The notes beneath the pieces were generated by a model. It saw only the letters and a list, made by a program, of their open reading frames with translations, had not been told where the DNA came from and made no database searches. Source: Phoronis australis (Eukaryota > Animalia > Phoronida). From it: DNA of 64,000 bases. The stretch spans positions 60,816 through 124,815 of the forward strand of contig NMRA01000211.1 in NCBI GenBank assembly GCA_002633005.1. Direction: 5' to 3'. This document shows, in pieces, positions 34,015-62,118 of this stretch. Position numbers and translations under genes: made by a program. Every line of letters starts with the position of its first letter. The stretch's first letter is position 1.

Positions 34015-36029
34015 TAAAAGTGATGTTCTGTGTTGAATCCTGATCGCTGGCTACGCATGATACATTAGCTCGTATTCTCTTAAAATAATAAATTCTATTG
34101 ATCGATTTGAAAATGAATTTTTAATACACAAATAGTGAAAATACAAAATTTAAGAATATGTGAAGGAAGATAACCTGACAGGCCGAGTCACAAGCGCTTA
34201 TTATCAAAGTCGAATTTTTTTGTTTATCTTTAGCTTCTTTTGCCAGATCAAGACCAATCACCGCAATCACCGATTTGCACCTTTCAAATGATCCAAGCAT
34301 ATCAGTATTTCTACTTAGTTGGATGAAACCCTTCAAGAATTTAGTAGCTTTTAGGTTAGTAGGTGGCCGCCCTCTTGTTCACCCAGAAAAAAATTTAATG
34401 ATCATGGTCCCGGAATTCACCAATATCTGACGATAAATACACAATGATTTACACAGATAAAACCCAGAGAAATATAAAAACAATTCTGAAAAACTAGAAC
34501 AAAGTGTGTAAGAGTAAGCCATAGTGAAGAATCAATCATTATCGCACGTTATTCATTAAATCGTGACAGAAAACGACTCAAGAATTAAGCAATCTGGTTT
34601 CTGGGCACCTGATGGGCGATAACCTGATCACCCAAGGTGGGCGCCNTGTATGAAGAAATACGAAACATTGACTTTGAATAGGTTTCAATCTATTTGACAC
34701 GGAGTAGCCTACGTACTCTATACATCTAATACTGACGTCATTGAATAAATTGTCTCATTTGAATTCATCAGCATGAAAATTCGATACCCTCACTTTCTGA
34801 AGCTCTTACACTTACGCAATATTTTCACAAATCGTACCGAGAGTGGCGTACATGAAGTAATATCCCACGAGACATTAGTCCGCGTATCGACCGAGACCGA
34901 ATTATCCCATGCGTTTCGAATTCCTAAGTTTGTTTCATTTTTCGGCAGATTTTTAAATACTTTACTCAGACTGTTCACATGGCGATCACATCCTATATGT
35001 ATGTACTTGCGTGTTAGGTGACAAGTTTTCTCTTGTAAAAGAAGCAGTTTTAAAAGTAACGATTTATTTCTTGAAAAAGGTAACAAAGATGAAAACAACG
35101 ACAACTGCCCAGTGAACTTGTAACATCTCCTGGAAATAGTGAAATAACAACAATAGTTGGTATTGTAATTTCCTAGGAATTGGAGGCTGAGTTGCAGACG
35201 TTGAAGTAGTGCGGGAGGTGAATACGGAAAACTTTAGTAAATGGCCGTATTTCGACATTATTCCGCGTATTGACCTCTACCTTCGGTCTCGGTCGATACG
35301 CGTAATAATGTCTCGTGGGATATTACTTCATGTACGCCACTCTCGGTACGTTTTGTATATATATGTTCATGTTTATTTAAAAGTGATGTTCTGTGTTGAA
35401 TCCTGATAGCTGGCTACGCATGATACATCAGCTCGTATTCTCTTAAAATAATAAATTCTCATTGATCGATTTGAAAATGAATTTTTAATACACAAATAGT
35501 GAAAATACAAAATTTAAGAATATGTGAAGGAAGATAACCTGACAGGCCGAGTCACAAGCGCTTATTATCAAAGTCAAATTTTTTTGTTTATCTTTAGCTT
35601 CTTTTGCCAGATGAAGACCAATCACCGCAATCACCGATTTGCACCTTTCAAATGATCCAAGCATATCAGTATTTCTACTTAGTTGGATGAAACCCTTCAA
35701 GAATTTAGTAGCTTTTAGGTTAGTAGGTGGCCGCCCTCTTGTTCACCCAGAATAAAAATTCAATGATCATGGTCCCGGAATTCACCAATATCTGACGATA
35801 AATACACAATGATTTACACAGATAAAACCCAGAGAAATATAAAAACAATTCTGAAAAACTAGAACAAAGTGTGTAAGAGTAAGCCATAGTGAAGAATCAA
35901 TCGTTATCGCACGTTATTCATTGAATCGTGACAGAAAACGACTCAAGAATTAAGCAATCTGGTTTCTGGGCACCTGATGGGCGATAACCTGATCACCCAA
36001 GGTGGGCGCCGGGGGGGGGGTCGTTATCC

Positions 36030-36155
36030 AAACATAACACCCTCGTCTTGAACTATTATGTTCACTCTTCAAAAAGGCACAACGCGATGTTATGGTGACT
36101 GGCCGTGCCTGATACTTCAGTATATTTCTTAAATAAATTCAAGGCTCAATGCTTT
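36030..36155 (+). mobile_element. Remnant of a Dada 3' region with a degenerate copy of the structured motif
   Basis: ttgaactattatgttcac...aggcacaacgcgatgttatggtgactggccgtgcctg matches 48890-48966 except for loss of the GGATCGAATCC hairpin. Confidence 0.75.
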
Positions 36156-36158
36156 CTA

Positions 36159-37378: not shown

Positions 37379-37380
37379 TA

Positions 37381-37939
37381 GCTTTCACACCCTGCTGAAT
37401 AACCAAGTAACCTTTGTAAATACTTGTGTGGTTGATCAAGCTATTGCTTTCAGGTAACTTCTTGTTAAACTTTCGTGGGCACTGATTCTTTTGGTAGTGG
37501 ACGTTCCACTCTCCTATTTGTGTCTGTGCCGTAACCGTGATGGCTGTTCACTACATGTTTTGCACTGATTCATGCTGTTCTGTTTCGATTGTGCGCAGTA
37601 TACTACATATTATTTGACTTTAACTAAGTATTAAGATTGTTTTTGAGGGTTCAAGGTGATTTCTCATTTTTGTGATACTTTTCGTATTGAGTGCATGATT
37701 TAGTTTGCTTGCTGAAGTACGGTAACTTTTATGTTTGTTGTACTTTAAAGCCAGACTTTTATAGGCAGATCATAAGCTGTAAAAATCAATCAACTAAGGT
37801 AGTACATTAGACATTTATTTATAACATCAGAGTAAAAAATGATTTTCAAAATATATAATCTTGCCTTGGCCCTGCCTTGATCACTTGGATGCAGCAAAAC
37901 CTTCAGACGAGGGCACCCAAGCGTGACCCATATGTACTT
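37381..37939 (+). mobile_element. 3' remnant of a family-2-like Dada element
   Basis: Aligns with 61287-61450 and 61860-62028; ends in the sub-terminal motif CCCATATGTACTT fused directly to the next element's left end. Confidence 0.8.
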
Positions 37940-38333
37940 GCTGTTGCACAGCCAAATGACCGGCCAATCGTTGAGCCCTGTTAAGCAAGGCTTTTCCTCA
38001 ACAGACCAATCACAACGCTCTGTTGAGCACAGCTTTTCCTCAACAGGGCTCAACCATTGGCCGATCACATGACGTCAAGACTTAAAATGGCGGCTTCCTG
38101 TCACCAAGTCCTTGCTTCAAAACTTTGAAGTCGAATAGCGTCGAAAATACGTAAGTAAGGACGTCAATTTTTGTGCAGATGTGGGAAAACCAAGTGTAGA
38201 ACAAGTGTGTGAACTTTAACTTTAGTCGTTGCCGCCAGATTTTGAGTTATTTAACAAAGTTGTGCCTCTTCCGGTGAATTAGTTCATTGCCATGGATTGG
38301 ATACACCGGCTGACCGGCTTGGCCGTAAATTAA

Positions 38334-40168: not shown

Positions 40169-41775
40169 TTAAAATTGCAAATATTAGCGAAAGTACGCAA
40201 AGTTGGATTCCTTCATTTGAGTGATCGTGAGTGAGATGGGGTCAGCTAGGTTAACTGAGCGTAGTCAGTTTTGTCTTCATTTCCTCAAATTTGGTGAAAT
40301 TAGACGGTTTCCGCTCACTTCCGGTTTCAGTGCCGAATTGTCAAGACATTTTTGATAGGCCTACGAATTGAAAACTGTTTGTTATATGGTTTGATGTGCA
40401 CCTTATTTCAATTCACACAGGATACTCGTTCGTCGTGTTCCCGCGTGAAGTAAGTAATTCCTACTACATATATATTTGCAAGTTCCTTGATATACAACAC
40501 TATGGAATACAACTGACTAAAATAGTCTTGTTTATCAAGGATTGATCTCAGGCTTCATTTTCGGAGCGCTCCATGCGCTCAGGGCGCATTCAAAGATTTT
40601 TAATCTGCGAATTCAGTTTCCTTAGCAAGAAAGTGTAAATATTTTACTACAATTTTTACCCATTGTAGCTGTAATGGTCCATTTTTCCCACGGCGTGTGA
40701 TTTTGTAAAACGATCTTAGAGTTTTTAATACTTTCCCTGATTCTCGCTAATTATTATTTCCTAAACCGATTTTGAAAATTTCCCTTTTTCCGAATCTTAT
40801 GAACTGAATTTCATGGAAAAAACAAGGTTTCCAATTTCTGTGTTTTCTTTTAGTGTACATTTTTGTAAGACTTTTCTGAAAGATGTGTTTGATGATGTAG
40901 GAACGCTATTCCACACAGGACACCTTTTTCTCCAGGATCATCGCCTTCGGTCATACAGGTGGGCGTCGATTATTTTAACTTATTACGTACCACAACAAAT
41001 GATAATGCCTTACTGGGAATATACCCAACAGAGTATTTTTACCCATTCGAGTATTTCTGACATATTCTTGAAGGAAATTCAGTACAAGCGAAAAAAAAAC
41101 ACTCAGATCGGAGTGACGTCGAAGAGCCCTTCACCGCGACGGGCCTAAGGTCGGGCGACGCCGAGGCCAGGAAATGAAATTCAGAAATATTTTAATCTTA
41201 TGAATCAATTATAAGTATATATTCTACAGAATGTCACTTTTTTAATCAGCTTTTTACCGAGGACTCCCCGGTCCGGATGCACTCCACGGCAGTCAGGGGC
41301 ACGATCCTACTTAGCTAACGGGATTCCTCCCCGCAAGTAGAGAGAGAGAGAGACAGAGAGCGCGAGACAGAGGGTGACGGGTTTATTAACATAAGTAATA
41401 TTAGCTCATAATACAGTTTACAGAGTACAATAAAACAAACAAAAGCATGATCACAACCGGCAAAGTAGTAGGCCATATGTGCACAAGCCTACTGACCGGC
41501 GACTGATTTGAAGTAAATCTAATTACAATTCATTTACCAATGTCTAACATAACAATGGCAATTGACTAAAATCATTACATTATCACACACGTAGTGAATT
41601 TATATTTTTAGGCTTATATTACAACTGTGCTTTGCCGTTTTCGTTTGGGAAGAAATTTCACAGGGGAAGAAATTTCATGCCTTAGACGTGAAATAACTTC
41701 CCGTCAATACCGCGCATGCGCAAAAGGGTCAGAATGGGAAGAAATTTCACGGGGAAGAAATTTCACGCGACACCG

Positions 41776-41926
41776 CCTCCCGTTCAGTAACGTTAGGACC
41801 TAGCTTAAAAGCAAGACTTTGCGAGATTACGCGAGATATTGCCATGTATTTTAAATAAGAGCACGTGACCTTGACTAGATTTTGGCTAGGTTCTAGCGTA
41901 GGTCCTAGCGTCTACTGAACGCACGC
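41776..41926. mobile_element. 151-bp Harbinger-like MITE (inverted sister of 39370-39520)
   Basis: Reverse-complement similarity, same length, CCG duplication. It is part of a larger insertion (~40337-41926) absent from copy B. Confidence 0.75.
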
Positions 41927-42241
41927 CCGGCTGCGTCGACGGACGCTTTTTATGCAGTTTTAAACTAGCGAGATGTCGGCTAATTCTTTTTAAGACACTC
42001 GCTTATGGGTTGGCACCGATCCATCATTATGTCTGTGATCAAGCAACACCAACAGCACCAAAGTTGGATTCCCCAAAACACAAAATCCTTTCGTAAACGT
42101 TGGCACTGTTTACTCACTTATCAGCGATCAGCTGATTTCTGTTATGTACAATGTCGATGGTTTTTGTGTGTTACAATTATTTAAGTACTAAGTTGACGAG
42201 TTTTGTTAAAGTACAGTATCGTGCTATTGTTGCAGGTCAGG

Positions 42242-45200
42242 ATGTACAAATGTAATATCTGTGGCAGAAAGTTTGGTGTCAAGTCAACCTTGACTCGTCA
42301 TATGAAAATTCATGAAGACCCGAAAGGCTTCAAGTGCGACCAGTGCGCAAAGTCGTTCACTCTTATGCAAAACCTCGTGGAACACACAAAGTTTCACCAG
42401 CGTCCCAGTATACCGTTATACAAACCCGGTGAGGCACAGCTTTGTTGCAGTGAGGAAGCTAAAAGTGTGGCCAAACTTCCTAGCCAGCCCGTGGATGCAG
42501 TGTGGTTGACGCCGCAGACGGCTGAGGCCACTGCAAAAAAAGCGAACCATCCAGATCTCTGGAGAGAGGAAATTGTCTTAACATTTGGAAAGTACGCCGG
42601 CCAAACCTACAAGTGGCTTTTAGAGAACGACGTTGGCTGGGTTGTGTGGCTGTTGGATGCATTCTGTCATGACGGCGAGAAGAATGATTTTCTGAATTGG
42701 CAGAAAGACCAACTGTTGCAGTATGCCAAATCGTTTGAGGCTGTTGTCGTGCACCTTGAGAAACGACGACAGGTACACTTTGAAAATATGATCCTGTTGC
42801 ATTGAGATTCGAACAATTAAATAGTTGTAGTGTATTTTGCACCTGCGATGTTCTACATAAAGTCTAAACACAATAGAAGTCGTTGGAAAATATTATTGGT
42901 TTCGTAACACGTGAACATTAACTCTAAGATTAACAGTTTTCCAGTATTATTTTGTTTTAATCAGGAACAGTTTGTTATACGCGTGTACTTACTTTTGCAG
43001 AAACGCATCGCGGAGGAAACTAAGTCCACACTGGTTTCTGATTTCTCAGCAGATGATCCTGGATATGTGGCGAATGCTGAGTTGCTAGGTCATGCTGGTA
43101 AGCACAATAGGCATGTTGCGTAGACTGATGTGAATGTTGTCAAAGATACTTCATACTTATGTCTGTGTATGTTCTGACTATGACATCACCTTAAGACTGT
43201 TTTATCCGTAATTAGTTACTGTTTTTAGCCTATAACAGTGGTGCTGGCTCTGGCTCATAACTCAAAATGGATACACTGACTTATGCAAATATTTATTTTT
43301 CTGTTAAAGAGGAGACGCTCGAAAAGTCGGAGGTGTCTGTGTCGACACAGATGGCGAAACTCAAAGACATTTTGCCATCCACCTCATCTTCCCCCCAACC
43401 TGTCATTGCTCCTGAAGTTGAACTGTCAACGGACGAATCCCTTGTGATTGAAGGGTGGCAGAAGTCATGGGAAACGTTGCCGTCCAAAGATATGCCATCA
43501 GCACCAAACATGACGTGGTTTAAGACCAGTAGTTTGTATGGCGTATTCGGAGAAACGAAGTCGTACAAGAACGCCAAGGGTGAGGTGGTCCCCAGAAAGA
43601 CCTTTAAGAACCAGATTGACATTCACCCTCCACCTCTACCTACAGCAATCACGTCACATGTTCCTAACATGATGTTGTTTTTTACCACGTGTATTTTTCT
43701 GGCGGCCGGTGGGAGTGATGGAGGCGAAAGTGAAGTGCCCCAATAGTAACTGCCCAGCTCCACCCGAGAGCTTCCTCATCAAACACGGTTTTGGCAGTGC
43801 TGCTCGGCAGGTTTGTGGTATGCAAAATTACTACACTCTGTTGACAGAACGCCTCGTCTGCACCCACTGCAAGCAGATACGCCACGCCGCTGAGCATGAT
43901 AGTGAAAGTGAGGACCACGGATCTCCGCCGCAACAGTACAGGTGGCATGCACACAGCCCGAGAATACTCATGAACCTCGCCCCAGCTCTACGCAGCATGT
44001 TTCCAGCTATTCTGTGTGGAAGACGCTCAGTTGATAAGTATGTCGCCACACTTCTAGGTGATCGTCTTAACGCCATTTCCATGGCAAAGGTGCAGCGTCT
44101 TCTGCAACAGGGACACGACGAGTGGTACACAGAACGGAGGGACCTGTACCAGACACTCCTGTACCAAGCTCACGCTTCGTCGTCGTCATCGTCACAGTCA
44201 GGCATTCTATCATTCATCAAACCATCCGGCAGCTACACTCCCCCACTCCCTCAGACGCCACTGCCTTCTGCCCGTTTGCTGCGACGAGCTCACCTCCTCA
44301 TGGAGATGGAGAGGATTCCCTCGTACAGAGCTTCGATTCTGAGTGTGACGGGAGAGATTCTTTGCATAGATAGAACCAGACAAGTTAGCATATATGTCAA
44401 CTTAACTGACTCATTTGACTATAACGTAATGTTTTTCCTAATTGATAATCTTTGAACAATATTGGCAAGTATTTTTGGATTTCTTTTCGCATAGTTCTCT
44501 TTGATGGGGAGTTTTTGATATCTGTGTTGCGAACGTTATTTTGTTGTTGAAGTTTCAGATCCTAAAGAAAATCTACGGTGATGGGCAAGGAACGTTACAG
44601 TATGTCACCAGTGTTTTAAATGAGTGGGGGCAGTTCTTGACAACGGTTGTGGTGGCGTCGGAGTCGGAAGGGTCTTACAACCGTATGGCGCGCGGATTGA
44701 TTGCCCGTTTCAAACGAGCCAATGTATTGGCTCCCAAGGTGCTCTACGTGAACAATAACTGTTGCTGGTGAGTTCAGAACTGCTGGCCTCATTTTTTTAT
44801 AGAAACATATTCATATTGTTTTACAAAATGGGCTGTTAGTACATATTTATATCTTTGTATTTAGTGATGGTGGAACCTCGTGGTATGAAACTCTGTTCGA
44901 AGACTGGATCAAGGAGGGTATGGTTGTCCGGCTCGACATCCGCCACTGGCTCCATAGCTGGGATGGCGTAGTCATCAAGCAGAGCCACTCTAAATACGGC
45001 GTTTTTATAAGTGCGATGGCGGGGGCACTGCTAGCATACAACAAAGAGGACGTATTGCAGGTTGCCAGAGCAGTACGCCTGGGCAATGAAGACCTCTACT
45101 CGGGCTACAGCGACGACCAGATGTTGCCTTTTATCAAGCCTCATCAGCTCAAATCTTACGTGCGGCGAATAACGCGTGGAGTAGAAGTAAGTTAGCTGCA

Positions 45201-48200
45201 GTAAACTTGCCACATTAGAATCACGGTATTGTTTTTACTGCTCAATGGGTGCAGTGTTTTTTAAGTAATGCTAAAGTGAGTTGTTCGTATGTTGTTAAAT
45301 CTTGCAGGAGACAGCATGTGAAATCGAACGAATCCTCGATGAGTTCAAGGGACCCGCGGGCTTGGACGTGGATGGGATACCCCTGTTCAAGTCCCTTGAG
45401 GCGGTCGAGTGCCGCTGGACAACAGCTAGCAAGCACTTGAGCTGCATGCAGGTGGGTATCCTTTGAGTGCATAGTCTATTCGGCTATCCAGTACCCCATG
45501 CTTATTGTATAGCCATCTGTTCTCTCAAAACTATCCACTCTGTGATGATGCTGGTTTAATCTTGTTTGTAACTTTTCTAACTGCCCTCCAGGATCCACAA
45601 GGAATCCAACTGTATGTGTGTACAAAAGTGGTGACAGTTAACGGTGTTGAGCTGAAGAAGTATAGATGTCGAAGGGGCACCAATTCACTGGAGGGTCTCC
45701 ATTCCCACTTGTACAACGCTGTGCCATTGCAACGATGCGGCATTACACCGTTCCAGGTAACCACACCTGTCTGGCTATCGGACGTGTTAATAGAGAAAGA
45801 TTTCTCCTTTTATCGTAATCTATTTTGCCCAGGGTACGCCACGAGCTATGTTGCAGAGTAAAACAAGAGGAGGATTGCGAATATTGTCATTTATTATGAC
45901 GTAATAGATAAAACTAACTAAGACTCTGCAAGATGGGCATGCAAAAAACGCCCACAGGCGTGTACAATGAATAGCCCTGCAAGAGGGAACAAAACAAAAA
46001 AACTGCCTGAAGGGCTTAAAGGAAAAGTACAGAACATGAAAACAAAACTTGAAAAAAAAAAAACCTAAGGAAATGTATACGAGCAAAGAGAAAGTGGAAC
46101 CGACACCCGGGATGGGGGGTGGGGAAAAAATGAAGAGAACGAACGTAGGTCTTGTAGATGACGAGGTAGGTGGCTGAATGAGAGACCACGTTGAACAGAA
46201 CAAAGGAAATATGGGCGTCCAATCAGGAGTTGAGTAGAGAAACGTATGAATACAAAAGTAGGCCCTAGAGGCTATAAATAGAGATGAGTAATGCAAAATA
46301 AACCCTAAGGACTGGTCTCAAAATAAAGAGACAAGTGTCAAAATAATGACGATAAATGCATTTAACAAGTTAAATTTAATTTATCGTAATCTATTTTGCC
46401 CAGCCCTTAAAACTTTCCCTTGTGCGCTACATGCAATATCTCAGTAGGACATCTTATGTAGAATAAGTGCGTGGTTAACGTTGTTCTTTGTAGCTGTACA
46501 TTGAAGAATTTCAATTTGTTGGAAAAACATATCCTTCTATGTTGCCGTGTGTTTCAGGTGTACCTCATTGCGTTCGTGGTACAGTGGAACCAGCGAATGG
46601 AGTCGCTTCGTGTAGCTGGAGGTCGGGGCCGACTGACGTCGTGCCTTGATCCAAGGCTCATCCAACGGCTCAACCACCACTCTGAGGTGCTCTTTGGGAA
46701 GAGCCACCTCTTTGAGCCGAACTTCGCCGCCCCATGCCGTACCCACAGCAGTACACCGACCCAGAAGAGGAGGAACTCTTGGGCGTAGAATACGCATACT
46801 GTCAGTCTACCGACTTCAAATCCAAGGAGTATTATGTCGAGAAGGGTAAGGAGACCTGTGCTGCATAGCTGAATTTGCCACTGAATACTTTCCGATAGAA
46901 ATTAGCTATGCCAATTAGTGATAGCACTGCTTTGTAACAACGCGCTCTTTACGGTATATCGTAAGAATACTTTAATTGCCATTTCAGTGGACGAAGAGCA
47001 ATCGCATCAAGAGCCAGACGAGAGCGAGTCAGAAGACGAGGGCGTAGAGGTTGAAGAGGCGGTGGTTGACGATGACCCCATTGATCACGTGAGCTCCAAT
47101 GCTGCACTCACGACTTCAGAAATGGTCACTGCAGAGGAAAGTCCCGCACTCCAGGATGTTCTAATGTCTGTTCGACGCCTCCATCTTCCCGGCTTTGAAG
47201 AAGTTGAGGCATTGGCACTTGCACTGTTACAACTAGTAGACGGTGGTGATACGCACATGATAGCTCCCGATCTGCGGAACAGAATTCGCGTCGCTGCGTC
47301 CTCGATTCACGACCACGACAAGAGCGCGCGGAACTTCACCAAGAAGTACGAGTCCAAGTGGGGCTACACGCTATTTGGAAGATGTCTGGGGCCGGAGTCT
47401 GCGGAGAACAATGCGGCTCAGAAGACCAAATTCGGTTGGATGCGATATGCCCAGGCAGCACAGATCTCAGAAGACTCGCGACTCCTGTATCTGGTTGTCA
47501 AGATGTTGAAGAACCGACCTGCTAATCAACATTCGTCCCCAACAAAGATTGCCAATGCCATAAGAGGAGGTTACAAGAGAATTGTCGACCGTGTAAGGGA
47601 TGACCCGGTACTTTGCTCCGTTGACATTCCACTGCCTAACATCAACTCCAAGTCTATCACAGTATTTCTGAGCAAGCTGGAAAAGAAGGCGAATTACATG
47701 GCTACAGCTCAGCCAAAAGTGGTTCCTCACAGAAAGGTTTTTTCCAGTCAGGCCATGCCAGATGCGCCTAGCCTCCCGACTTCACTACCACTGCCAGATC
47801 GACCAGAGGTTCAGTATGTAGCGTTGGAGCACAGTTCTGGTAAAAGACATCTGGCCAAGGAGAGAGTTGACGTCGACGAACCAAAGCCCGTGCGTGTCAG
47901 ATCTGGGTCAGCTGCAGTGGCTTCGTCTGCTCCAGTTCTGGTCGTAGTTCCTGCTCAGCCACTGGCACCTTCTGTAAAATTAGAGCAGCCCTCAACGAGC
48001 CAGGGGTATTCTCGGTTTGTGTTGACTGCACCTCCGCCACTGCTTCCCACGAAACCGGTTATGCCTAGCAAGTCCGATAAACCCTGCGCTGCCTGCAAGC
48101 AACCAAAGTGTGGTGGGTTACGTAAGCGATACACGCCCTCAAAGGACAAGACGTCGGGCAGTCGGCAGAAAATATTCACTTTCTGTCCCACCACTGGGAG

Positions 48201-48297
48201 GTCGACTACACCAGGCTTTGATGAAGTCTACGACAGCTTCCAGAGTTTCAAGGAGTGTGTGGATGCGGAGCTCCTGAAAAGAAAGAATGCATGTTGA
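42242..48297 (+). pseudogene. Dada transposase pseudogene (2 N-terminal C2H2 fingers, DDE core), 9 coding exons
   Basis: Exons 42242-42772, 43001-43097, 43310-44383, 44559-44767, 44865-45186, 45308-45451, 45592-45756, 46558-46845, 46988-48297. Motifs TFGKYAGQTYKWLLENDVGW, LCIDRT, LYVNNNCC, RLDIRHW, RCRRGTNSLEGLH. Frameshifts at ~43690 and ~46731 relative to the paralogue. Confidence 0.88.
45833..46379. mobile_element. ~550-bp insertion with 24-bp flanking direct repeat
   Basis: TTTATCGTAATCTATTTTGCCCAG at 45809-45832 and 46380-46403, inside a transposase intron. Confidence 0.65.
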
Positions 48298-48866
48298 TAG
48301 GTTTATCCTAAGTCCGATTGTATGTACATCAACAATTGCAGCTCAGTAACTTTGACTTGACTATTTTTTGGTGTAGTTGAGGCTGTTTCAAAGGGTATTA
48401 TTATCAATAGCTAAAACTGGCGATTTAAGAGCATCTTTGTTTATTTTTAGTTCACAACGGAAATGATTTGCTGCATGCTGGGTAAGTTCATATGTTGTGT
48501 GTACCTGTGTGCCTAATGCTACTTAAGCCTCGTACTCTTGAAGCTTTGCCTTTCTCCATGCTTTTATAACATTCCATGTCATACTCAGGGTGTGGTCTTT
48601 CCTTGTTGCTTTCCTGTAACTTCTGTCATTGCTATTGTTTAACCAAACTTGCTTTATTAGTCTCTTGGTTGTTGTCCCTATTGCTTATGTATGGCCTGCA
48701 CATTGTTAGAAGTGACTTCTGCTTAGCAGTGCATTTTTGTATTTTTTCAAATATATAGTCTAACGATTCTGTGCCTTGTCCTGTATGTGTTTTCGACTAT
48801 TTTTCTGTTTGTAATGTGCATTATGTCTGTTAGCCTTATACCTTTGAACTGTGTGTGTTGTAAATA

Positions 48867-48979
48867 AAGACTGAGATAACACAGTCGTATTGAACTATTA
48901 TGTTCACTTTTTAAAAATGGCACAACGTGATGTTATGGATCGAATCCTGGTGACTGACCGTGCCTGTTATCTCGGTTTT
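48867..48979 (+). ncRNA. Putative pseudoknotted structured RNA motif of Dada 3' end (family 1 copy A)
   Basis: Closing helix 48867-48881/48965-48979, hairpin TGAAC/GTTCA, GGCAC/GTGCC four-way junction and CAGTC:GACTG pseudoknot; covaries with 61648-61757. AATAAA at 48863-48868. Confidence 0.7.
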
Positions 48980-49319
48980 CAGTTTGTTCACTAATTACAT
49001 CATATTTTTGAAATGGAAACAATTATTTGCTCAACTTATTTTGAAATGTGGAATGTCGAGTGTAATAAAAGTGTAATAAAAAGTGAGATAATGCAAAAAA
49101 CAGCCTTAAACTGAAGCGAGTGTGAGGTTAGATGGCCAACGTCTACTTTTGCTACAAAAATCCCCGTTTTTTGGTGTTTTTTTGGACTTTTTTGCCCTTT
49201 TCTGCGATCACTGAAGTCAGCGCTCCCTCAGGGGATCGGGGAAACTAGTATAACCACCCCCAGGGGTCGTTGCCCATTCCCAGGCTGTTGCACAGCCAAG
49301 TGGTTATACCGCGCTCGAC

Positions 49320-49526
49320 CGGCCAATGGTTGAGGCCCGTTGAGCGCGGCTTCTTCCTCAACGGACCAATCAGAACGCTCTGTTGAGCGGAGTTGATCGG
49401 TGGCCTTCCTCAACGGGGCTCAACCATTGGCCGATCGCGTGACGTCAAGACTCAAAATGGCGGCTTCCTGTCACCGAGTTCTCGCTTCAAAAGTTTGAAG
49501 TCGAATAGCGTCGAAAATACGTAAGT
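49320..49526 (+). promoter_or_regulatory. Putative Pol II promoter and non-coding first exon of the Dada transposase (homologues 37960-38157, 54560-54700)
   Basis: CCAAT, CCAAT, ATTGG and TGACGTCA occur in the same order and similar spacing in both families; family 1 adds AAAATGGCGG and a donor ac|gtaagt. Confidence 0.6.
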
Positions 49527-51708: not shown

Positions 51709-51821
51709 AAGACTGAGATAACACAGTCGTATTGAACTACTATGTTCACTTTTTAAAAATGGCACAACGTGATGTTATGGATCGAATCCTGGTGACTGAC
51801 CGTGCCTGTTATCTCGGTTTT
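51709..51821 (+). ncRNA. Structured 3' motif, copy B
   Basis: Near-identical to 48867-48979; the single change lies in a hairpin loop (TATTAT>TACTAT). Confidence 0.65.
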
Positions 51822-52098: not shown

Positions 52099-54202
52099 CT
52101 TGAATGCTCCAAAAACGCAAAATCCTTTCGTGAACGTTGGCACAGTTCATTCATGTTGTCCTCGATCAGCTGATTTCTGCTCTCAACCAAATTTAGTACA
52201 TTACGTGGGCGGTGCATCATAGGGGACTACGTGAGGGGGCTATAGTCGCCGTGCTCCCCCGTCGTCTATGGGCGGTGCACCACAGGTCAGCCGGGGGTCT
52301 TAATAGCCCTCCCTCACCTTTTTCAGTGTTGCGTCGCCCATGCAATATCGATGCTTTTTGTGTTTTAGAATTCATTACCTACCACAAAGACCGGAAAGGC
52401 TTCAGATGTGATCCGAACTTCCTAGCCAGCCCTGTACGCAGCATACCGCTTAGGCGACAGCGAAAAAGCGAGCGGTCCAGATCTGTTTCGAAAGTACACC
52501 AGCCAAACCTACAGGTGCCTGCAGATAGGAAACGGCGTCGGCTGCATTTTGTGGCTGTCGGATACATCCTGTCGAGATGGCGAGAAGACTCGATTGTCTG
52601 GCATGGTAGAAAGACCAACTGTTGCAGTACGCCAAATCGTTCGAGACTTGTCGTGCACCTTGGGAAACGACGACAGGTCCGGTTTGAAAATATGATCCTG
52701 TTGCATAGAGATTCGTAACCTATGAACATTGATTCTAAGATTCTCATTAGTTGCAGAACTGTTATGTTTCACTTAGTAACAGATACCTGATTCATACGCG
52801 TGTATTTACCCAATCTTATTTTTGCAGAAAGGCGTCGTGGAGGAAACTAAGACAACACCAGTTTCTGATTTCTCAACAGATGATCCTGGATATGTGGCGG
52901 ATGTTGAGTTGCTAGCTCATGCTGTTAAGCACAATAGGCACGTTGCACCGACTGACTTGAATGTTGTCAAAGATGCTGTATACTTATGTTTATATATGTT
53001 CTGACAACGTTGTCTTCTTTTTATCCGTAATTAATCCGATCCAACATACTGTTTAGCCGAAAACTGTCTCGAATGGCCAATAGTGCTGGCTGCGATTGAT
53101 AACTCGAAATGGATGCACTGACTTATTCAGATATTTATTTTTCAATTACAGAGGAGTCACTCGGAAAGTTGTGTGTACCCAGACGACATTGAAAGACATC
53201 CTTCCGTCCACGTCATCTTCGTCGCAACCTCTGACTTTATTACAGTACATGAACTGCCAACCGATGAATCGCTCGTTGTAGAAGGATGCCAGAAGTTGTG
53301 GGTAGTGTTGCCATGCATACAGCCCGAGGATACTCACGAACCTGGCCTCAGCTGTATGCAGTATGTTCCCAGCTATTCTTCGCGGCAAACGTGCCATCGA
53401 TAAGTACATTGTCCAATGCTGTGTCCATGACAAAGATACAGAGACTTCTACAGGGACATTAGGAGTGGTACACAGAACGCAGGGACCTGTACGAGACTCT
53501 CCTGTACCAAGTTAGCGTATATGACTCACTTGACTATAAGATAACATGTTTCCTCATGGTAATCTTTGAACTGCGGCATTGACAACTCGTTTTAGACTTC
53601 TTTTCACATAGTTTTCTTTGATGGGGAGTTCTTGGTATCATTCTTCGAATATTATTTTGTTGTTGACATTTCAGATTGTCAAGAAAATCTACGGCGATGA
53701 GCAGATGATGTCGTTCCTCAAGCCACATCATCTCAAGTCGTGTGTGCGTGCGGAGAATAACCTGTGGTGTTGAAGTAAGTTAGCTGCAGGGAAGTAGTGT
53801 TACCAATATGCTATCACACCAACTTACTAAGTAATTAATATATATCATGGATACATAACGCGTTTCATGACAGTTGTATCTATAAATGAACGCCGAGGTA
53901 ACACAGTCAGATTGAACTATTATGTTCACTTTTAAAAAAAGGCACAACGTGATGTTATGGATCGAATCCTGGTGACTGACCGTGCCTGTTATCTCGGTTT
54001 TAAGTTAGTTCACTAATTACACCACAGTCTTTTTAATAATTGCTTTTCCTCTTCAATTTTGAGAAAAAATATATCTCATACCTTGTTGATATTTATTTAT
54101 CTTAGATAAAGTCATGGAAAGGCTGTAAAATAATTTACTAATGACATTATAGTTGAGGAAAATTGGGGAAACTAGTATAACCACCCCCAGGGGTCGTTGC
54201 CC
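52099..54202 (+). mobile_element. Heavily deleted, chimeric Dada copy C
   Basis: Patchwork of segments homologous to 42060-45200, followed by the 3' motif (53892-53998), a family-2-like tract (54030-54130) and the family-1 right end GGGGAAACTAGTATAACCACCCCCAGGGGTCGTTGCCC. Confidence 0.8.
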
Positions 54203-54439
54203 AAAAAAATATTATACACTTAAGAAAAAACTACAAATGAATTTTCAGAAATTGTGAGGTAAGACCTCCCCAAGGTCAAATATAACACATTTTTCATCAG
54301 AAGTATGTTTTTTGGCTTCTTTTTGGCTTCTTTCTGCCTACTTTTCTCTTGCCTTGGGGCTGATCACCCTGATCACCATTTTGCGCCCTCTGTCGTGATC
54401 CCCGGGAGTTACTGTTTCTACTTAGGTGGGTCATGACCC
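54203..54439 (+). mobile_element. Right-end remnant of a third Dada-like family
   Basis: Ends TTTCTACTTAGGTGGGTCATGACCC immediately before ATTCCC of the 5S fragment, in the same register as the other right ends. Confidence 0.6.
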
Positions 54440-54512
54440 ATTCCCAGGCGGTCACCCATCCAAGTACTAACCGGGCCCGACGTTGCTTAACTTCGGTGAT
54501 CGGACGAGAACC
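54440..54512 (-). rRNA. 5S: 5S rRNA gene fragment (~nt 30-102), interrupted at GGGAAT
   Basis: Minus strand GGTTCTCGTCCGATCACCGAAGTTAAGCAACGTCGGGCCCGGTTAGTACTTGGATGGGTGACCGCCTGGGAAT is the canonical invertebrate 5S sequence; truncated, so non-functional. Confidence 0.95.
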
Positions 54513-55466
54513 AGTATTCCCAGGCGCTCACCCATCCAAGTACATAACCGGGCCCTGACCAGCCAATCGCTGAGCCCTGTTAAGCACGGCATTTCCTTAA
54601 CAGGCCAATCAAAATGCTCTGTTAAGCAAAGGCCTTGCTTAACAGCGCTTAACCATTGGCTCCTTCAGCTGACGTCAAAATCCAATATGTCTGCCTCTTT
54701 CGATCTAGTCTCCGCTTCGAATGTTTGCCGTCAAATTACATCTAAAATACGTCTTTTTCAACAGTAATACTTAGCCAAGATTGTCAGTACCACATGAAGA
54801 ACAGGTTGGTAATCTCTGATTTTATTCTTTTGTCGTAGATTTAGAATAATCTGTAAGAATGTGTTACTTCCGGTAATTCTTGGGCGTCGCCATGGATACC
54901 GCTGCTGACCGAATTGCCGGTTGAATAAAATTGCAAAATTCTCCAAAAATACGCCAAGATCGAATGTTTCACTTGAATCGAAATGACATGCGGACAGTTA
55001 GGAATGGTCTGTGATGTACGATTCGTCTTTATTTTCCCAACTTCATTTAAATTGAACCGTTTTTCTCTTCACTTCCGGTCGAAATGCCGGCTCTCGGAAA
55101 ATACCCAATTTACCCAATATTAAACGCTCCAGTTCTCGGCGAATTGGTTTCAAAAACATTGATTAGGGGCTTGAACCTATGCATTGGTGTGTCTGTGATC
55201 AGGAACACACCTCATCCGCATATTTATTACCCCAAATGACGCCAGTTTTTTTCGTAAACATTGTCACTGTTCACCTAGCTGTCGGCGATCAGCTGATTCC
55301 TGTTAGAGGTCAAACTCCAATGGTTTGAAGACGTTTCAGCTGTTTATCTACTCGTGCACCCAACCCATGCACATGCAACCCATGCGCTTAAGCACTGATT
55401 GTTTGCTCAGGCCCACATTAAGTGTACTTTTGCCTCTTCCTAAAATGGTGTCAATTTTTTTTAGTC

Positions 55467-58400
55467 ATGTACAAGTGCGCCACATGTGGGAAATCATTTT
55501 CCCAGAAAGGCCATCTTCGAGAGCATGAGAAAATTCATACTTATCCGAGACTGCAGTTGTACAAACCTGGAGTGGCTAAACTGCAGTGCACAGATGCCGC
55601 AAAAGCGATTAAAGCGAGGACGAGCGTAACGTCTGTCGATGTGAAGTGGTTAGAGGAGAGGTCTGCCATCGACGCCGCCAAGGCCATAGCTGGAGAGCAA
55701 TGGTTGTCTGCCGTCATCATGACCTTTGGACAGTATCGAGGTCAGTCGTTCCAGTGGTTACTAGAAAACGACGTTGGATATGTTGTTTTCATGCTGGGAG
55801 AGTACTTCCTGAAGGGGGACCGAAACGAGTGCACCAGGTGGGTCAAGGATCTCCTGAACCAGTACGCAAGCCAGTTTGCTTCAGTGGCATGTCATCTGGA
55901 AAAAAAGGTAAGTTTCTGTAATGTAGCTACAAATTAATCGCTGATGTTTTGCCAAATTGGATAGGAACAACAACGTTGTGAACGTCCGTATTTGAGTATG
56001 GTACTGAGTGATGAAGGAACGACTGTCGTGTCAAGTAATCTTAAAATCGACACATACAACCATGAGTCTTAAGACTATTTACCATCGATTAATCAATTAC
56101 CAATACTTCTGTTTAGAAACAACTGAAGAAAGCGCCACCTACTTCGACGATCAGCAGGCCCCCTCCCGACGAGTTCTCAGAAGAGCACATCCAAGACAGT
56201 GAGCTCTTGTCACTGGCAGGTATGATGTAACCTATCGTCATCTTGGAAGCTAGTTGTCAACTTCGTTTTGAATGTGGGTTAATTAATTCCCTAATGTTCG
56301 TATTTGTAACATCGATATGGATATCATTAGCTTTTTACATTCACGTTAGCGATTACGGTAGGTTTGTATGAGTATGCTGCTGCACTTCCTTAACTGAGCA
56401 CGGGCTGTTTTGTGACCAAGATATGATAACCTCTTGTGATAAAAAACTAATACAACAAATCCTAATATTGCTCAATTCTTGAGTGTTAAACTCTGCATGT
56501 GATGCCGTTATTTTTTCTCCTTAGAAAACATACTGGAACAGTCAGAAGCACCTGTCGCTACATGTATTACCAGTGTGCCAGCTCCTGAAGACACAGACAA
56601 AGTGCCAACTACTCCCATCCCCGAAGTGACCAGCTCTGTTACATTGGAAGGTTGGCAGAAGCAGTGGGAGGATGCGGCTTCCCCAGCACGAAACAACGTC
56701 AGGTGGATGAAGGAGAGTGAAGAATACGGCTTGTTCGGTCCGCCTAAAGCATACAAAAACGCTAAAGGGGAAACATTGTTTCGCAGAACCTTCAAAGACA
56801 AGATGTGGTTTCACCCCCCTCCCATCCCGACATCCATCAAGTCGTCCATTCCTAACATGCTGGGCTTCTTCACGACACCAGTCTTCCTGTGGAGACCTGT
56901 AGGACTATTGGAAGCCAGGGTGAAATGTCCCAATCGTACCTGTCCTGCGCCTCCAGACACTTATCTTGTAAAGCGGGGATACGGATCATTTCCGAGGCTA
57001 GTTTGCGGGACACACTCCAACTACATCTTGTTGTCAGAGCGACTGTTCTGCAGCTTTTGCTATGACCTTCGTGGCCAGCATGAGGAGTCAAGTGATGAGG
57101 AGGGAGAAGCCTCGTCAGGTACAAAGCAGCAGCAGTACAGCTGGCACTCGCACAGTTCTGCAATCCTGATGACCCTCGCCCCTGCCATTCGGAACCTCTT
57201 ACCAGCCATTGTATGCAGCAAGAGAGCTGTTGACAAGGATGTCGTGACCATGCTGAGTGACAGGATCAATGCAGTTTCAATGACGAAAGTACAAAGGTAC
57301 AGTGTGACGAGTAATGATAACATAGACACCCGTGATAGAAATGACAGTATTTAAAGAATGTTGTAATTATTCTACACACACTTAACTTGTTCAGTAATTA
57401 ATGTGCTAATTAATGTTTTACATGTTTCCATTTCGAACGGAAAAGCTTTAACCTTTGATAGCGTGATAGAATTGTTTGTTCCCTTGTACTCAGAACTATG
57501 AACATGTGTGGTATAACTTTGTCTCTAACTTACGAGCGAATCATATGTTCGTCCAGGTTGCTGAAGCGAGGCCACGACGAGTGGTACATTCAAAGAAGAG
57601 ACCTCTACCAGACGCTTCTTTATACCGCACACAGGTCGAAAGAGGGGATCTTGCAATACATCAGGCCAGCAGGATTTTATACGCCTCCTCTGCCACAAGC
57701 TCCTCTGCCGGGTCCACGCTTCCTACGACGGGCTCACCTGTTGATGGAAATGGAGTTAATACCCGCCTACAGAGCATCTATCACCAGCGTCACTGGCGAA
57801 ATTCTCTGCATTGACGGGACTAAGCGAGTACGTTTCTTTTCAGCAAAATGGATCACCACTTGTGGCACTTTTAGTAATTACTGATGCTGTTATCAGTTTT
57901 TTGTTCGTACACACCTTTTACTCAATTATATGACCACTTCATGTTAATTGCAGGTGCTCAAGAAAATTCGTGGTGACGGGCAAGGTACGATGCAGTACGT
58001 AACGACCGTGCTGAACGAGCTGGGCCAAATTTTGACGACCGTGGTAGTGGCCTCAGAGTCGGAAGACTGCTATGCCAGGATGGCCAAGGGTCTAGTTGCA
58101 CGTTACAAGCGGGCCAATGCGACTAGTCCAAAAGTGCTCTACACTGACAACAACTGCTGCAGGTGGCTTCTAGAATGCATTTTAATCTATAATCCTTGTT
58201 ATTTTTTAAGTTTACGTGGCATGTGCCTGATAATAAGCTGCATTTCTTAATTAATGTGAACTCGTACATTTACAGTGACAAAGGGTCTTCATTTCTGGCC
58301 AGACTGTTTTCGGAGTGGGTGGATGAAGGGATGGCTATTCGTCTTGACGTTAGGCACTGGCTTCACAGATGGGACGCTGTCATCATAAAACAAACTCATG

Positions 58401-61081
58401 CCAAGTACGGCTCATTTATGAGTGCTCTCGCTGGGGCTGTGCTCGCCTATAACAAAGACGACATGGTGGAGTTGATTAGGGCTGTTCGCAACGGCAACAA
58501 AGACCTCTCAGAACTCAGCGACTCTGAAGTCATGAGCCATTTGAAACCCTATCAGCTGAAGTCTTACGTTCGTCGTATCACACGTGGTGTAGAGGTTAGT
58601 GCTTAAGAATATGAAATCGAGTCAAGTAATTTATAATTTTAATGTCTTTTGCGAAACATGACCATTGAAGACCAGTTTTAACAATGCTAGAAATTGTTAT
58701 AGGAAACGGCAGGGGAAATCGAGGCGATTCTGGAGGAGTTTAAGGGTCCTGCTGGGCTTGACATCGACGGCATCCATCTGTTTAAGTCGAGCGAGGCAGT
58801 GGATTACCACTGGATGACTGCTTCCAAACATCTTGGATGCATGCAGGTAACATTTTGCGCAAATGTTTCATGTGGAACTGCTCTTTCAAAGAATGATCTA
58901 TGCACGTGTGGGCTATGTCTGCATTTACACACTTTAGCTCCATCCGCTTAATTGAATGAATTTGTTTTCTCTCGCTTCAGGATCCACATGGCATTCATCT
59001 GTACGTGACGACCAAAGTAGTCTCCGTCAATGGTACTCGGCTCAACAAGTACAGATGTCGCCGTGGCAGTAATTCCCTGGAGGGATTACACGCCCACCTC
59101 TACAATGCCATCCCCTCTAAGCTGTGTGGTGTTCAGCCGTTCCAGGTTAATGCGTCATTGGTTTTGCTATTACAATATAATTGTCAGTATGATTCAAACC
59201 TAAATGCGCAAGGTATCTTTGCATACAGTATCTACTGGTTTTTTATATAATAGGTCCACTGATGTACCTCTCCTACATTTCAGGTTTATCTCTTGTCTTT
59301 CGCCGTTCAGTGGAACAGCAGGATGGCAGAGCAGGCTGTAGCTGGAGGTCGGGGCAGTGGTACGTCGTGCGTAGATCCACGTCAGGTTCAGCGGGTAAAC
59401 CAGCAGGCTGAGGTTCTTTTTGGGAGGGAGCATGTCCTCGAGCCCAACTTCTACGCACCCATGCCCATTCCGCAGAAGTACGATGATCCGTCAGAGGAGG
59501 AGCTGCTCGGCATCGAGTATGCGTACTGTCAAGCCAGTGACTTCAGTGCCACTCACTTCTACATAGAAAAGGGTTAGTCGTGTTGCATCATTCCTTGACT
59601 GTGCAACATTCGTCAATTTTAACTGCTTGAGTACGTTGTGTTTATTTATTGGCTACTGAATTGGAAATAACATTAAGTTGATACAGTGGTAGTCGACTGC
59701 ATTGTTAAAGACAGAACTTGTAGCAATACTCAGTCGTATATACAAAATACTTTCATAATATTACGAGCAATATTTTACAGCCGAAGAAGAGCAGTCGCGT
59801 GAGGAAGAGGAGGACGAGGAGGGTGACGAAGCGGACAGCTCAGAAGATGAGGGCATCGAGACTGAGGACGGCGATGAAAAAGACCCAATCGATGCCATGA
59901 ACCAGTCGCACGCTTCACTTTCCTCTGCCGAAATGGTGACTGAGGTGTCGAGCCCGGCACTTGAGGATGTCATGATGACGCATCGCCACTTGCATCTGCC
60001 CGGCCTTGAGGAAGTCGAGTCTTTGGCCACGCTCCTGGTGTCCTTAGCGTCTGATGACGGCAAGCTGTTAGTACCCGCGGATGTGAGGTCGAAGATCTGT
60101 GACGCAGCTAGTCACTTACATGATCATGACCGGTCAGGCAGGAACTTCGTAAAAAGATACGAGTCCAAGTGGGGATACACACTGTTCGGACGGTGTCATG
60201 GTCCAGAGTCTGCAGAGACCAGTGCGGCACAAAAAACGAAGTTTGGGTGGATGCGGTACGCTCAGGCCGCCACAATAACCGAAGAGTCACGACTGCTGTT
60301 TGTGGTGATCAAGCTACTGAAACACAGTCCTGCGTGCCAGATGTCGTCCCCAAGGAAAGTGGCCAATGTGATTGTACACAAGTACGGCAGAATATGCGAT
60401 CGCATCCGTGACGATCCAGCGATCAGTCGTCTCAGACTTCCGCTGCCGAAAATAAACGCCAAGTGCGTCACTACATTTATATGTAAGGAAGAGAAGCGGG
60501 CAAACTTCGAGGCTACAGTCCGCCCAAAGGTTACTCCTCACACCAGAGTTGTGTCCGATCAGGTGATGCCTCCAGCACCTAGTCTGCCGGATTCAATGCC
60601 ACCACCGAATCGCCCTCAGATACAGTATCCAGTCCTGGAATACAAGACTGGCAAGCGACACTTGCAGAAGGACAGGCTGGAGTTGGACGAGCCAAAGGCC
60701 AAAGGCAAGGCTCCCGAACCCCAAATTCTTGTTGTAGTGCCGTCACAGCCGCAATCCTCCTCTGTTCGAGTTGTTCAAGGTCCAAGCGGCCCGTCGTTTG
60801 CCTTACTGCCACCTCCCCCAACTATTATGTCACGGCCGGTACTACCAAATAAGTCAAACAAGCCATGTGCAGCTTGCAATTTGCCCAGATGTGGTGGTAA
60901 GAGGAAACGCTACACTCCGTCGAAAGACAAGGTTGCAGGAAGCCAACAGAAGATATTCACCTTTTGTCCCGTAACTGGTCGATCACTAACCTCAGGATTC
61001 CCTGGAGTTTTCGAGTCATATGAAGAATTCAAGGCCCGGGTCGACGAGGAACTTAAGAAAAGGAGCGATTCCCTTTCGTGA
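55467..61081 (+). CDS. Dada-type DDE transposase with N-terminal C2H2 finger, 1337 aa, 10 coding exons
   Basis: Exons 55467-55907, 56117-56219, 56525-57296, 57557-57827, 57954-58162, 58276-58594, 58703-58846, 58981-59145, 59284-59572, 59781-61081. All GT-AG, 4014 nt, no stop or frameshift found by hand. Motifs CATC..H..IH, TFGQYRGQSFQWLLENDVGY, LCIDGTK, LYTDNNCC, RLDVRHW (DxxH), RCRRGSNSLEGLH, C-terminal CAAC-x4-C..FCP. Confidence 0.9.
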
Positions 61082-61647
61082 TCTTAGAGTAGTCTACTGT
61101 ATATTGTATTGTGGAAAGATGTCATACTCGTAGTTGTTTTTTATAACATATGCATGTTTGTTTTTTAGATTGATTGGCTGCTAAAGGAAATTTTCTGTGG
61201 TAAGTTCAGGTGTTGTGTGAATCTCTCCCTGTTTGCTCCATGTCAAACTTCTAGGCACTATGCTTAAAACTCCTAACTGCCACGGGCTTTTCACACTCTG
61301 CTGAATAACCAAGTAACCTTTGTTAATACTTGTGTGGTTGATCAAGCTATTGCTTTGAGATAACATCTTGTTAAACTTTCGTGTGCACTGATTCTTTTGG
61401 TGGTGGATTTTCTGCTCTGCTAATTTGTGTCTGTGTTGTAACCGTGTTGAATCTGTTGTGACAGTGTATATTTGTTTCGTCACATTTCTTATAACCAATA
61501 AGTCTCGCTAAAAACTGCTACATTTCACTGAATGTTTGTATTTCTAACGCTTATTTGTAACGTTGCTTTATCCCTTATAAGTTTGCTACTGCTTTTTCTG
61601 TTTGTAATGTACATAATGTCTGCCTGCACTGTGTTGTTTGTAAATAA

Positions 61648-61757
61648 AAGCTGAGGTAACACAGCTATATTGAACGATTATGTTCACTCTTTAGAAAGGC
61701 ACAACGTGATGTTATGGATCGAATCCTGGCGGCTGGCCGTGCCTGTTACTTCAGCTT
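61648..61757 (+). ncRNA. Structured 3' motif, family 2 version
   Basis: Same helices as 48867-48979 with compensatory changes; AATAAA at 61643-61648. Confidence 0.7.
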
Positions 61758-62044
61758 GAATTCTTTTTTAAATAATTGCTTTTCCTCTTCAATCATGAGA
61801 AACAAATATATCTCATACCTTGTTCATGTGTATTTATCTTAAATAAATTAATGGAAAGGCTGTAAAAATCAACCAACTTTAATAATTTAGTGCATTACAC
61901 AATATATTTGTAATAATATGGTAAAGAAAGATTGTCAACATCAAGCACCTTGGCTTGGGCCTGCTTTGGTCATCTAGAAGCAGCGCCATCTTCTGGCGCG
62001 TGCTTTCAAGCATGACCCATATGTACTTCCAGGGGCACCTGCCC

Positions 62045-62118
62045 GTTCCCAGGCGGTCACCCATCCAAGTACTAACCGGGCCCGACGTTGCTTAACTTCG
62101 GTGATCGGACGAGAACCG
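62045..62118 (-). rRNA. 5S: 5S rRNA gene fragment (~nt 29-102) forming the right flank of the intact Dada
   Basis: Identical to 54441-54512 over the shared length. Confidence 0.95.

Follow-up and report, generated by a model that had tools for sequence, protein, structure and literature searches.

What a structured RNA motif of about 110 nt is doing at the 3' end of a cut-and-paste DNA transposon is the question raised by this locus. A first-pass annotation of the window (the whole 64,000-nt stretch of DNA that was analyzed) described an unassigned, covarying and pseudoknotted motif at the 3' ends of several Dada copies. Dada is the sole superfamily of eukaryotic DNA transposons with strict sequence targeting and has been suggested as a gene delivery tool, according to PMC3706591. 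Dada-5S is described only from fish, in the one paper naming it (PMC8869645), and inserts at ATTCCCAGGCGGTC in antisense orientation to 5S. Judged by sequence, the hosts of the motif copies are Dada-5S DNA transposons inserted in 5S rRNA genes. The published target was found at junctions 49276, 54439, 54516, and 62045 (one junction reads GTTCCC), such that the window holds ATTCCCAGGCGGTC in 5S rDNA with a 6-bp duplication and elements oriented opposite to 5S. The family 2 element encodes an intron-containing DDE transposase with DxxH, its residues assigned by analogy, together with a C2H2 finger, DUF6729, and the signatures CIDGT, YTDNNCC, DVRH, and SLEGLH. All nine of its exon open reading frames (ORFs) match a 5S-inserted metagenome element, L004, at about 41 to 81% identity, and the 3' end of L004 resembles Dada-5S_ClH in Dataset S1 (PMC8869645). 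The last exon gave 82 matches, to proteins of fish, amphioxus, echinoderms, and priapulids that mostly share 44 to 60% identity, and transposase relatives were absent from prokaryote and viral sets.

The region is a pile of tandem and nested copies, namely A, B, C, and family 2, plus a fragment at 36 kb (Table 1). Copy B is internally deleted and 96% identical to A over 1.86 kb, and the copy C element is decayed. The two truncated 5S fragments (54437 to 54512 and 62042 to 62117) are 98.7% identical over 76 nt, lack the first ~29 nt, and stop at the same position. Because they share an endpoint and are so nearly identical, both were probably copied along with the element and do not mark separate insertion events. 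The family 2 5' terminus (54522 to 54555) mimics the 5S target for ~34 nt, and the 3' ends hold an inverted echo of it, akin to the subterminal repeats reported for Dada-U6 and Dada-U1. We note further that the element 5' ends (37957 to 38067, 49317 to 49430, and 54556 to 54661) carry a palindromic, CCAAT-rich, promoter-like array followed by TGACGTCA, and the same array occurs in fish Dada-5S. Other repeats lie nearby: an element inserted just past the decayed motif (36156 to 37381), bounded by terminal inverted repeats of ~165 bp and enclosing a palindromic satellite of 21 bp, a 2.5-kb insertion flanked by ~156-bp inverted repeats (88%) that interrupts the copy A 5' end (39369 to 41927), and a tandem duplication of 1.34 kb (97%) that contains inverted repeats of 80 bp (33308 to 36010). 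Farther off, a 330-amino-acid ORF (9588 to 10580) with a weak reverse transcriptase match (E 0.001) is probably a LINE fragment.

Table 1. Features of the motif and its host elements
Feature	Position	Strand	Basis or remark
Motif copy A, family 1	48867..48979	+	Alignment, folding
Motif copy B	51709..51821	+	1 difference from A; not independent of A
Motif copy C	53889..54001	+	Decayed element; G-U intermediates in P1
Motif, family 2 copy	61647..61758	+	Alignment, pairing, reads
Decayed motif	36025..36124	+	5' arm replaced after Dada-like 3' terminus; H2 deleted
P1 5' strand	48870..48881	+	12 bp supported, partner 48965-48976; ends in CA dinucleotide, 12-13 nt after AATAAA
Pseudoknot 5' strand CAGTC	48882..48886	+	Partner is H3 loop 48952-48956
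P2 hairpin	48891..48906	+	Stem invariant, only loop varies
T5 run in linker	48908..48912	+	Possible U-rich downstream poly(A) element; internal Pol III stop
Predicted four-way junction	48919..48964	+	P3 closing H1 48924-48934, H2 48937-48947, H3 48949-48959
H2, GGATCGAATCC	48937..48947	+	T-loop-like hairpin, exact B box GWTCRANNC; missing in decayed copy
TGTA then AATAAA	48859..48868	+	Likely proximal poly(A) signal, abuts P1
Two distal AATAAA	49064..49080	+	~85 nt past motif; family 2 has one at the same distance (+195)
Dada-5S family 1, copy A	41927..49275	+	5' end lost; last-exon ORF 46906-48297
ATTCCC hexamer between tandem copies A and B	49276..49281	+	Dada-5S target-site duplication
Dada-5S family 2 element	54522..62044	+	Multi-exon DDE transposase ~55467-61081
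Truncated 5S rRNA fragment	54439..54513	-	Starts at Dada-5S target site
Truncated 5S rRNA fragment	62045..62117	-	Adjoins family 2 3' end

Four intact copies and one decayed copy were found near the sites first reported, close to Dada-5S 3' ends (113-column alignment), and within the window a model built from four of the copies scores these five alone above 22 bits. The motif was said to be far more conserved between the two families than its flanks. Measured against fourfold-degenerate sites, which differ at 72 of 113, that is so (motif identity is 85%), but some neighboring blocks are equally conserved. Fixed 60-nt flank windows give 12 to 68% identity against a background of 42%, and hand-bounded neighbor blocks reach 82% (A versus family 2, upstream, with 14 gap columns) and 92% (C versus family 2, downstream, 95 nt). 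As adjacent blocks are that similar in particular pairs, the 3' ends appear by sequence to be recombinant mosaics, and the 85% identity of the motif alone proves little. A 32-nt run within the junction is nevertheless invariant in the four intact copies (longest-run permutation P = 0.006). Copies beyond the window were observed only via public reads, in which two more flanks meet family 2 sequence at 61637/61638, just upstream of the hexamer. The motif ends 200 to 300 nt inside the element.

The motif likely folds as a pseudoknotted, plus-strand RNA that belongs to no catalogued family. In the intact copies, all 144 cells across 36 pairs are paired, whereas slid controls for the same structure pair at 30 to 39%; the decayed copy breaks 8 of the 36. 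Four pairs change on both sides, two of them in P1, one in the pseudoknot, and one in H3, a number reached in 4 of 500 shuffles (a frequency not to be read as a probability). Two further P1 pairs change on one side. Between A and family 2 there are 13 differences at paired positions and four doubly hit pairs (permutation P = 0.004). The closing helix, first drawn at 14 to 15 bp, holds for 12 bp in all intact copies, and its outer 3 bp fail. The UGAAC/GUUCA hairpin (P2) does keep its stem unchanged, with substitutions falling only in the loop, and the hairpins and the GGCAC/GUGCC stem have the strands assigned to them; P2, P3, H1, and H2 are invariant, however, and so gain no support from covariation. 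The informative variants number three, as A and B are one base apart, and all four double changes separate family 2 from the rest; covariation rests on two lineages within one genome. On this comparison, the fold is well supported at P1 and fairly supported at the pseudoknot and H3; the invariant helices have no such support.

The strands of the pseudoknot, too, are as described, with one double change, but the CAGCT of the window's family 2 copy is a minority allele. Family 2-type reads carry CAGCC in 64.8 of 64.8 DNA depth and in nine of nine RNA reads, giving a perfect CAGCC/GGCUG pseudoknot. Likewise, DNA depth of 17.9 out of 17.9 and four of five reads of run X6 have C at position 61750, which restores a G-C pair in P1. 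By these public reads, the two G-U pairs of the window's family 2 copy are private to it. Substitutions in paired regions had been called compensatory or G-U, and the intact copies indeed show G-U at six distinct positions and A-C at none. Since the non-Watson-Crick pairs are G-U and never A-C, the fold would lie on the plus, coding strand. The states found in copy C are G-U steps that lie between those of the two families, and the decayed copy has one such intermediate. Selection on a plus-strand RNA fold in a Dada-5S element is supported.

Thermodynamic folding bears on strand and on topology. Plus-strand z scores are -4.1, -4.6, -4.0, and -3.5 in the four intact copies, and those of the minus strand are -2.8 (A) and -3.5 (family 2). 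Among 31 windows tiled over the A and family 2 3' regions, the motif is the only plus-strand window with z below -2. The claimed junction is not the unconstrained optimum in A (-31.9 versus -35.2 kcal/mol), and without the pseudoknot constraint the H1 and H3 pair probabilities in A are 0.02 to 0.04; when the ten pseudoknot bases are withheld, the four-way junction is the minimum-energy fold in A, C, and family 2. Folding with DNA parameters gives -14 to -19 kcal/mol and a small strand difference. Three other arrangements were rejected. The hairpin that the unconstrained minimum-energy fold places inside P3 is broken in family 2 (A-C at columns 69/85), a second pseudoknot between the P2 and H1 loops is broken in B, family 2, and the decayed copy, and reading P1 as the terminal inverted repeats of a MITE leaves the G-U bias and the pseudoknot change unexplained.

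The motif has so far been seen in one genome only. Rfam gave no gathering match on it (best E = 4 on copy A and E = 4.6 to 9 around family 2). No motif was found at 21 metagenome Dada loci by nhmmer (best E 7.8) or by the four-copy covariance model (best 16 bits, E 0.2); ten of these loci have more than 1 kb past the ORF, and three of the ten (L002 to L004) are one element. Exact-pattern scans of metagenome, viral, and prokaryote collections found no motif either. In fish Dataset S1, three diagnostic words gave zero matches and three others gave five unrelated ones, although a word split across two lines can be missed there. The motif was not found in the open-access literature, and it is apparently an undescribed RNA fold in a known transposon lineage. 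As separate observations, the fish-type Dada-5S element L004 has at 6420 to 6545 a 10- to 13-bp helix closing ~100 nt with several hairpins, 236 nt from its end, for which we do not claim homology, as it has no sequence likeness to the motif (z is -2.2 on plus and -3.1 on minus). A ~110-nt block with 80% identity and a GGGG/CCC hairpin start lies downstream of two other Dada relatives (L001:1768-1959 and L012:3047-3254) and may be another repeat.

Such a distribution, with mosaic 3' ends in which neighbor blocks reach 82 to 92% in particular pairs, could mean that the motif is a relic: a captured structured RNA gene or repeat, with covariation older than the capture, that now hitchhikes and is spread between families by recombination of 3' modules. 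The motif is missing at 21 of 21 relatives' loci, many with short 3' flanks, and by exact words from the fish dataset, and all four double changes set one lineage, family 2, apart. Against capture, however, no pair is broken in the 144 intact-copy cells while the dead copy breaks 8 of 36, chimeric states are G-U and never A-C, and the motif persists as one block in every flank combination, at a summed DNA depth of ~350 against 4 to 6 for family 2-unique sequence (repeat depth being rough). We consider a relic improbable.

How the 3' regions are transcribed was read from public long-RNA libraries of unspecified selection, which placed 36 (X6) and 26 (X7) reads on the family 1 3' region and zero on the 3' regions in runs X8 and X5. 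Sense reads cover the end of the family 1 ORF and the 3' untranslated region (UTR) (first mate mostly minus, in a stranded library) at a depth of at most 8 and stop by 48766; among the 62 reads of X6 and X7, no sense read lies on the motif. The motif reads recovered in the family 1 search have the first mate on plus, i.e., antisense, and carry family 2 alleles. Over the family 2 3' region, 15 of 15 reads are antisense (61598 to 62040), chiefly from a copy whose upstream flank resembles that of C. This low-level antisense RNA covers the family 2 3' end, and some reads pass 62040 toward the 5S fragment. No pile of molecule ends was found in the 3' reads, where depth amounts to a few fragments. 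The gap in sense reads fits an mRNA that ends before the motif, a cleaved RNA, or a small RNA, and argues weakly against retention of the motif in mRNA. The antisense strand is transcribed at a low level, and the pairing pattern does not favor that strand.

We speculate that the motif acts in cis, its fold overlapping the poly(A) site of the transposase and gating the use of that site, which we consider the best explanation and give a probability of roughly 0.35. We infer all the functional steps of such gating, and the fold itself is supported by comparison. Poly(A) cassettes have a characteristic layout, and here the order is UGUA, AAUAAA, a CA 12 to 15 nt later, a U-run ~25 nt beyond (the T-run lies ~40 nt past the hexamer), and a GU-rich stretch. 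AATAAA stands directly before the motif in A, B, and family 2, as first reported, and copy C instead has TATAAA 8 nt upstream. P1 covers the CA cleavage zone, and in both families the inverted-repeat arms reach into the hexamer. Copies A and B and family 2 have a second AAUAAA, 195 to 208 nt from where the motif starts. Polymerase II (Pol II) would read through the AAUAAA hexamer. If the motif were unfolded, the U-run and GU-rich core would serve as downstream elements and the CA at the P1/pseudoknot border would be cut, leaving an mRNA that lacks the motif. If P1 were closed and the pseudoknot docked on the junction, the fold would mask the cleavage site along with some of the hexamer, and processing would move to a distal AAUAAA or fail. 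The fold would in that way set the amount of transposase mRNA and where transcription stops before the target gene, and the invariant T-loop hairpin would serve for a tertiary contact or for protein binding.

We place gating first because of the cassette layout, the position of P1 over the cleavage zone, and the second AAUAAA downstream. It is favored as well by UGUA and AAUAAA abutting P1 in A, B, and family 2, by the two read-derived flanks that join just upstream of the hexamer, and by sense reads that stop before a motif whose fold is on the coding strand. A number of points count against it. Sense coverage is already gone ~100 nt before AAUAAA, and only antisense reads fall on the motif. 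Hexamers and U-runs are common in AT-rich UTRs, the hexamer lies inside a block shared by descent, and copy C is without AATAAA. Moreover, simple occlusion needs neither a pseudoknot nor a 32-nt invariant core, fish Dada-5S elements do without the motif, and pairing every nucleotide of a 5-nt loop is sterically tight. Protection of the 5S array from read-through, offered earlier as a rationale, is not visible here, as the window has truncated 5S fragments only. To our knowledge, nothing is established about cis-acting RNA or end requirements in Dada.

Sense reads that never cross the motif would also be expected of a small self-cleaving ribozyme of an undescribed class, one whose cut in the nascent transcript, just past the poly(A) signal, would terminate Pol II before 5S is reached. 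Small ribozymes typically have this appearance, with a closing helix that varies and, inside it, an invariant junction and a pseudoknot. We regard a ribozyme as rather unlikely, however: there is no Rfam ribozyme match down to E = 10, the hammerhead and HDV core patterns are absent, and a hairpin-ribozyme substrate pattern occurs in A only (one of three copies tested). Moreover, the transposon ribozymes known to us reside in retroelements, and Dada has no RNA intermediate.

A tRNA-like processing signal, recognized by RNase P, had been among the readings proposed at first. It fails on geometry, as H3 and P3 separate the T hairpin from P1 so that it is not stacked on the closing helix, and ARAGORN predicts zero genes. 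What was overlooked is that the 11-mer GGATCGAATCC doubles as an exact Pol III B box, raising the possibility of a Pol III small-RNA gene with a type 2 promoter inside the transposon or, at least, a DNA-level TFIIIC site at the 11-mer. The layout would be a start at the P1 5' end, an A-box-like 11-mer at +8, the B box 50 bp on, and a T4 run at the end of the terminal stem, resembling vault or tRNA-derived RNAs. GWTCRANNC is matched exactly in all four intact copies (consensus from PMC5381342), and the covarying P1 begins on a purine exactly 7 nt before TAACACAGTCG, with an A-B gap of ~50 bp; in tRNA-type promoters the A box is at +8 and the B box 30 to 60 bp away (PMC5391098). T4 ends the stem in A, B, and C, and a 110-nt RNA would escape these long-RNA libraries. 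The A box itself is imperfect, with one mismatch to the consensus in family 1 and two in C and family 2, against a background in which 1.4% of positions have at most one mismatch, and its bases are accounted for by pairing. Moreover, a T5 run in A and B, a T4 in C, and a T5 in about half of the family 2-type DNA depth precede the B box, although the window's family 2 copy has no internal run of T4 or longer and Pol III can skip terminators (PMC5381342). In one of the downstream flanks derived from reads, the first 30 nt are free of T4, and only one of the five fish Dada-5S ends seen has an exact B box.

Other Dada families make the B box harder to dismiss. In Dataset S1 (PMC8869645), fish Dada-tA, tD, tK, tL, tN, tS, and tV, which target tRNA genes, have an isolated B box ~40 to 300 nt from the 3' end, forward in tA and reverse in tD, tK, tL, tN, and tV. 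There the reverse word ggattcgaacc has 18 matches, in the tD, tK, tL, tN, and tV parts, all 18 within ~300 nt of an entry end or terminal pyrimidine tract (three without a visible next header and one resembling the target tRNA itself). Of the forward words, ggttcgaatcc lies near 3' ends in five of six matches and ggatcgaatcc in two of two, mostly in Dada-tA; chance would give ~0.3 matches per word over the whole file. These subterminal B boxes suggest TFIIIC binding at the element end, and on their account we take a DNA-level TFIIIC site or Pol III gene as a serious if still unlikely rival. In the Dada relative L005, the transposase ORF is followed ~510 nt on by a tRNA-like gene (L005:2502-2569, coding strand; Rfam tRNA 42 bits, short anticodon arm), which may represent a SINE or else a signal of the mascRNA kind. 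The text of PMC8869645 was searched for "B box" and "TFIIIC" and has neither, and an open-access literature search for Dada with TFIIIC found no paper. The fish B boxes would offer an alternative to purely sequence-based targeting, namely TFIIIC tethering. More broadly, it is possible, if doubtful, that a cut-and-paste DNA transposon here encodes its own tertiary-folded functional RNA, either a new ribozyme class or a Pol III RNA with a tRNA-elbow-like core. If so, such an RNA together with the fish Dada B boxes would tie Dada to the Pol III apparatus that serves its target genes.

A compact invariant core would also suit a protein site, and the transposase has zinc-finger modules (PMC3706591), such that the Dada transposase itself might bind the motif as RNA, whether in the service of cis-preference, of feedback, or of capturing the target. 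Guide-like complementarity of the omega-RNA or bridge RNA type was found neither to the 5S target nor to the element ends: the longest exact match is 5 to 6 nt, a length that shuffles equal in all 12 comparisons, and a duplex energy reached by 1 of 60 shuffles arose in one comparison only. Kojima ascribes targeting to direct recognition of DNA (PMC8869645), and fish Dada-5S elements use the same site without the motif. Binding by the transposase seems quite improbable.

Why a plain DDE transposon would hold a selected tertiary RNA fold is of interest beyond this locus, as one would look for such folds in retroelements or Fanzor/TnpB carriers instead. This 110-nt motif comes in two variants with natural compensatory alleles. 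The window element and fish Dada-5S share their target, antisense-to-5S orientation, CCAAT-rich 5' end, and 5S-mimicking subterminal sequence, but the motif words are absent from Dataset S1, and RNA structure, the B box, and polyadenylation go undiscussed in PMC8869645. Fanzor/TnpB omega-RNA is likewise a structured, pseudoknotted RNA near the 3' or right end of a DNA transposon; here, in contrast, no RuvC nuclease was seen, guide complementarity is lacking, and the motif lies well inside the element. Vault RNA and other type 2 Pol III small RNAs are 88 to 140 nt long with internal box A and box B (PMC7904556), which the motif resembles in its length, its B box, and its candidate A box. A terminal stem ending in a U run is shared with vault RNA as well. 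The motif has no Rfam Vault match, however, and differs from vault RNA in its internal T4-T5 run, weak A box, and pseudoknot. The xrRNA pseudoknot forms a ring that encircles the 5' end (PMC12397905), and for this class, too, Rfam gave no match. The motif, carried by a DNA transposon, matches none of the hammerhead, HDV-like, twister, pistol, and hatchet families of mobile elements, with which it shares size, closing helix, pseudoknot, and invariant junction. Patterns for an Sm site, box C/D, and the histone stem-loop are absent or not conserved in it. In mascRNA and menRNA, a T-loop-like hairpin also lies downstream of a Pol II 3' end, but the motif has no cloverleaf, and its T hairpin of 3 to 4 bp is followed by another hairpin and no acceptor strand. 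For gating of a poly(A) site, the nearest parallels are the HIV-1 polyA hairpin and the HTLV-1 RxRE, in which structure masks a poly(A) signal: a stable helix likewise stands beside AAUAAA and hides or shifts the cleavage site. We claim no relation in sequence to either, and here the helix would belong to a DDE DNA transposon and come with a four-way junction, a pseudoknot, and a T-loop-like hairpin.
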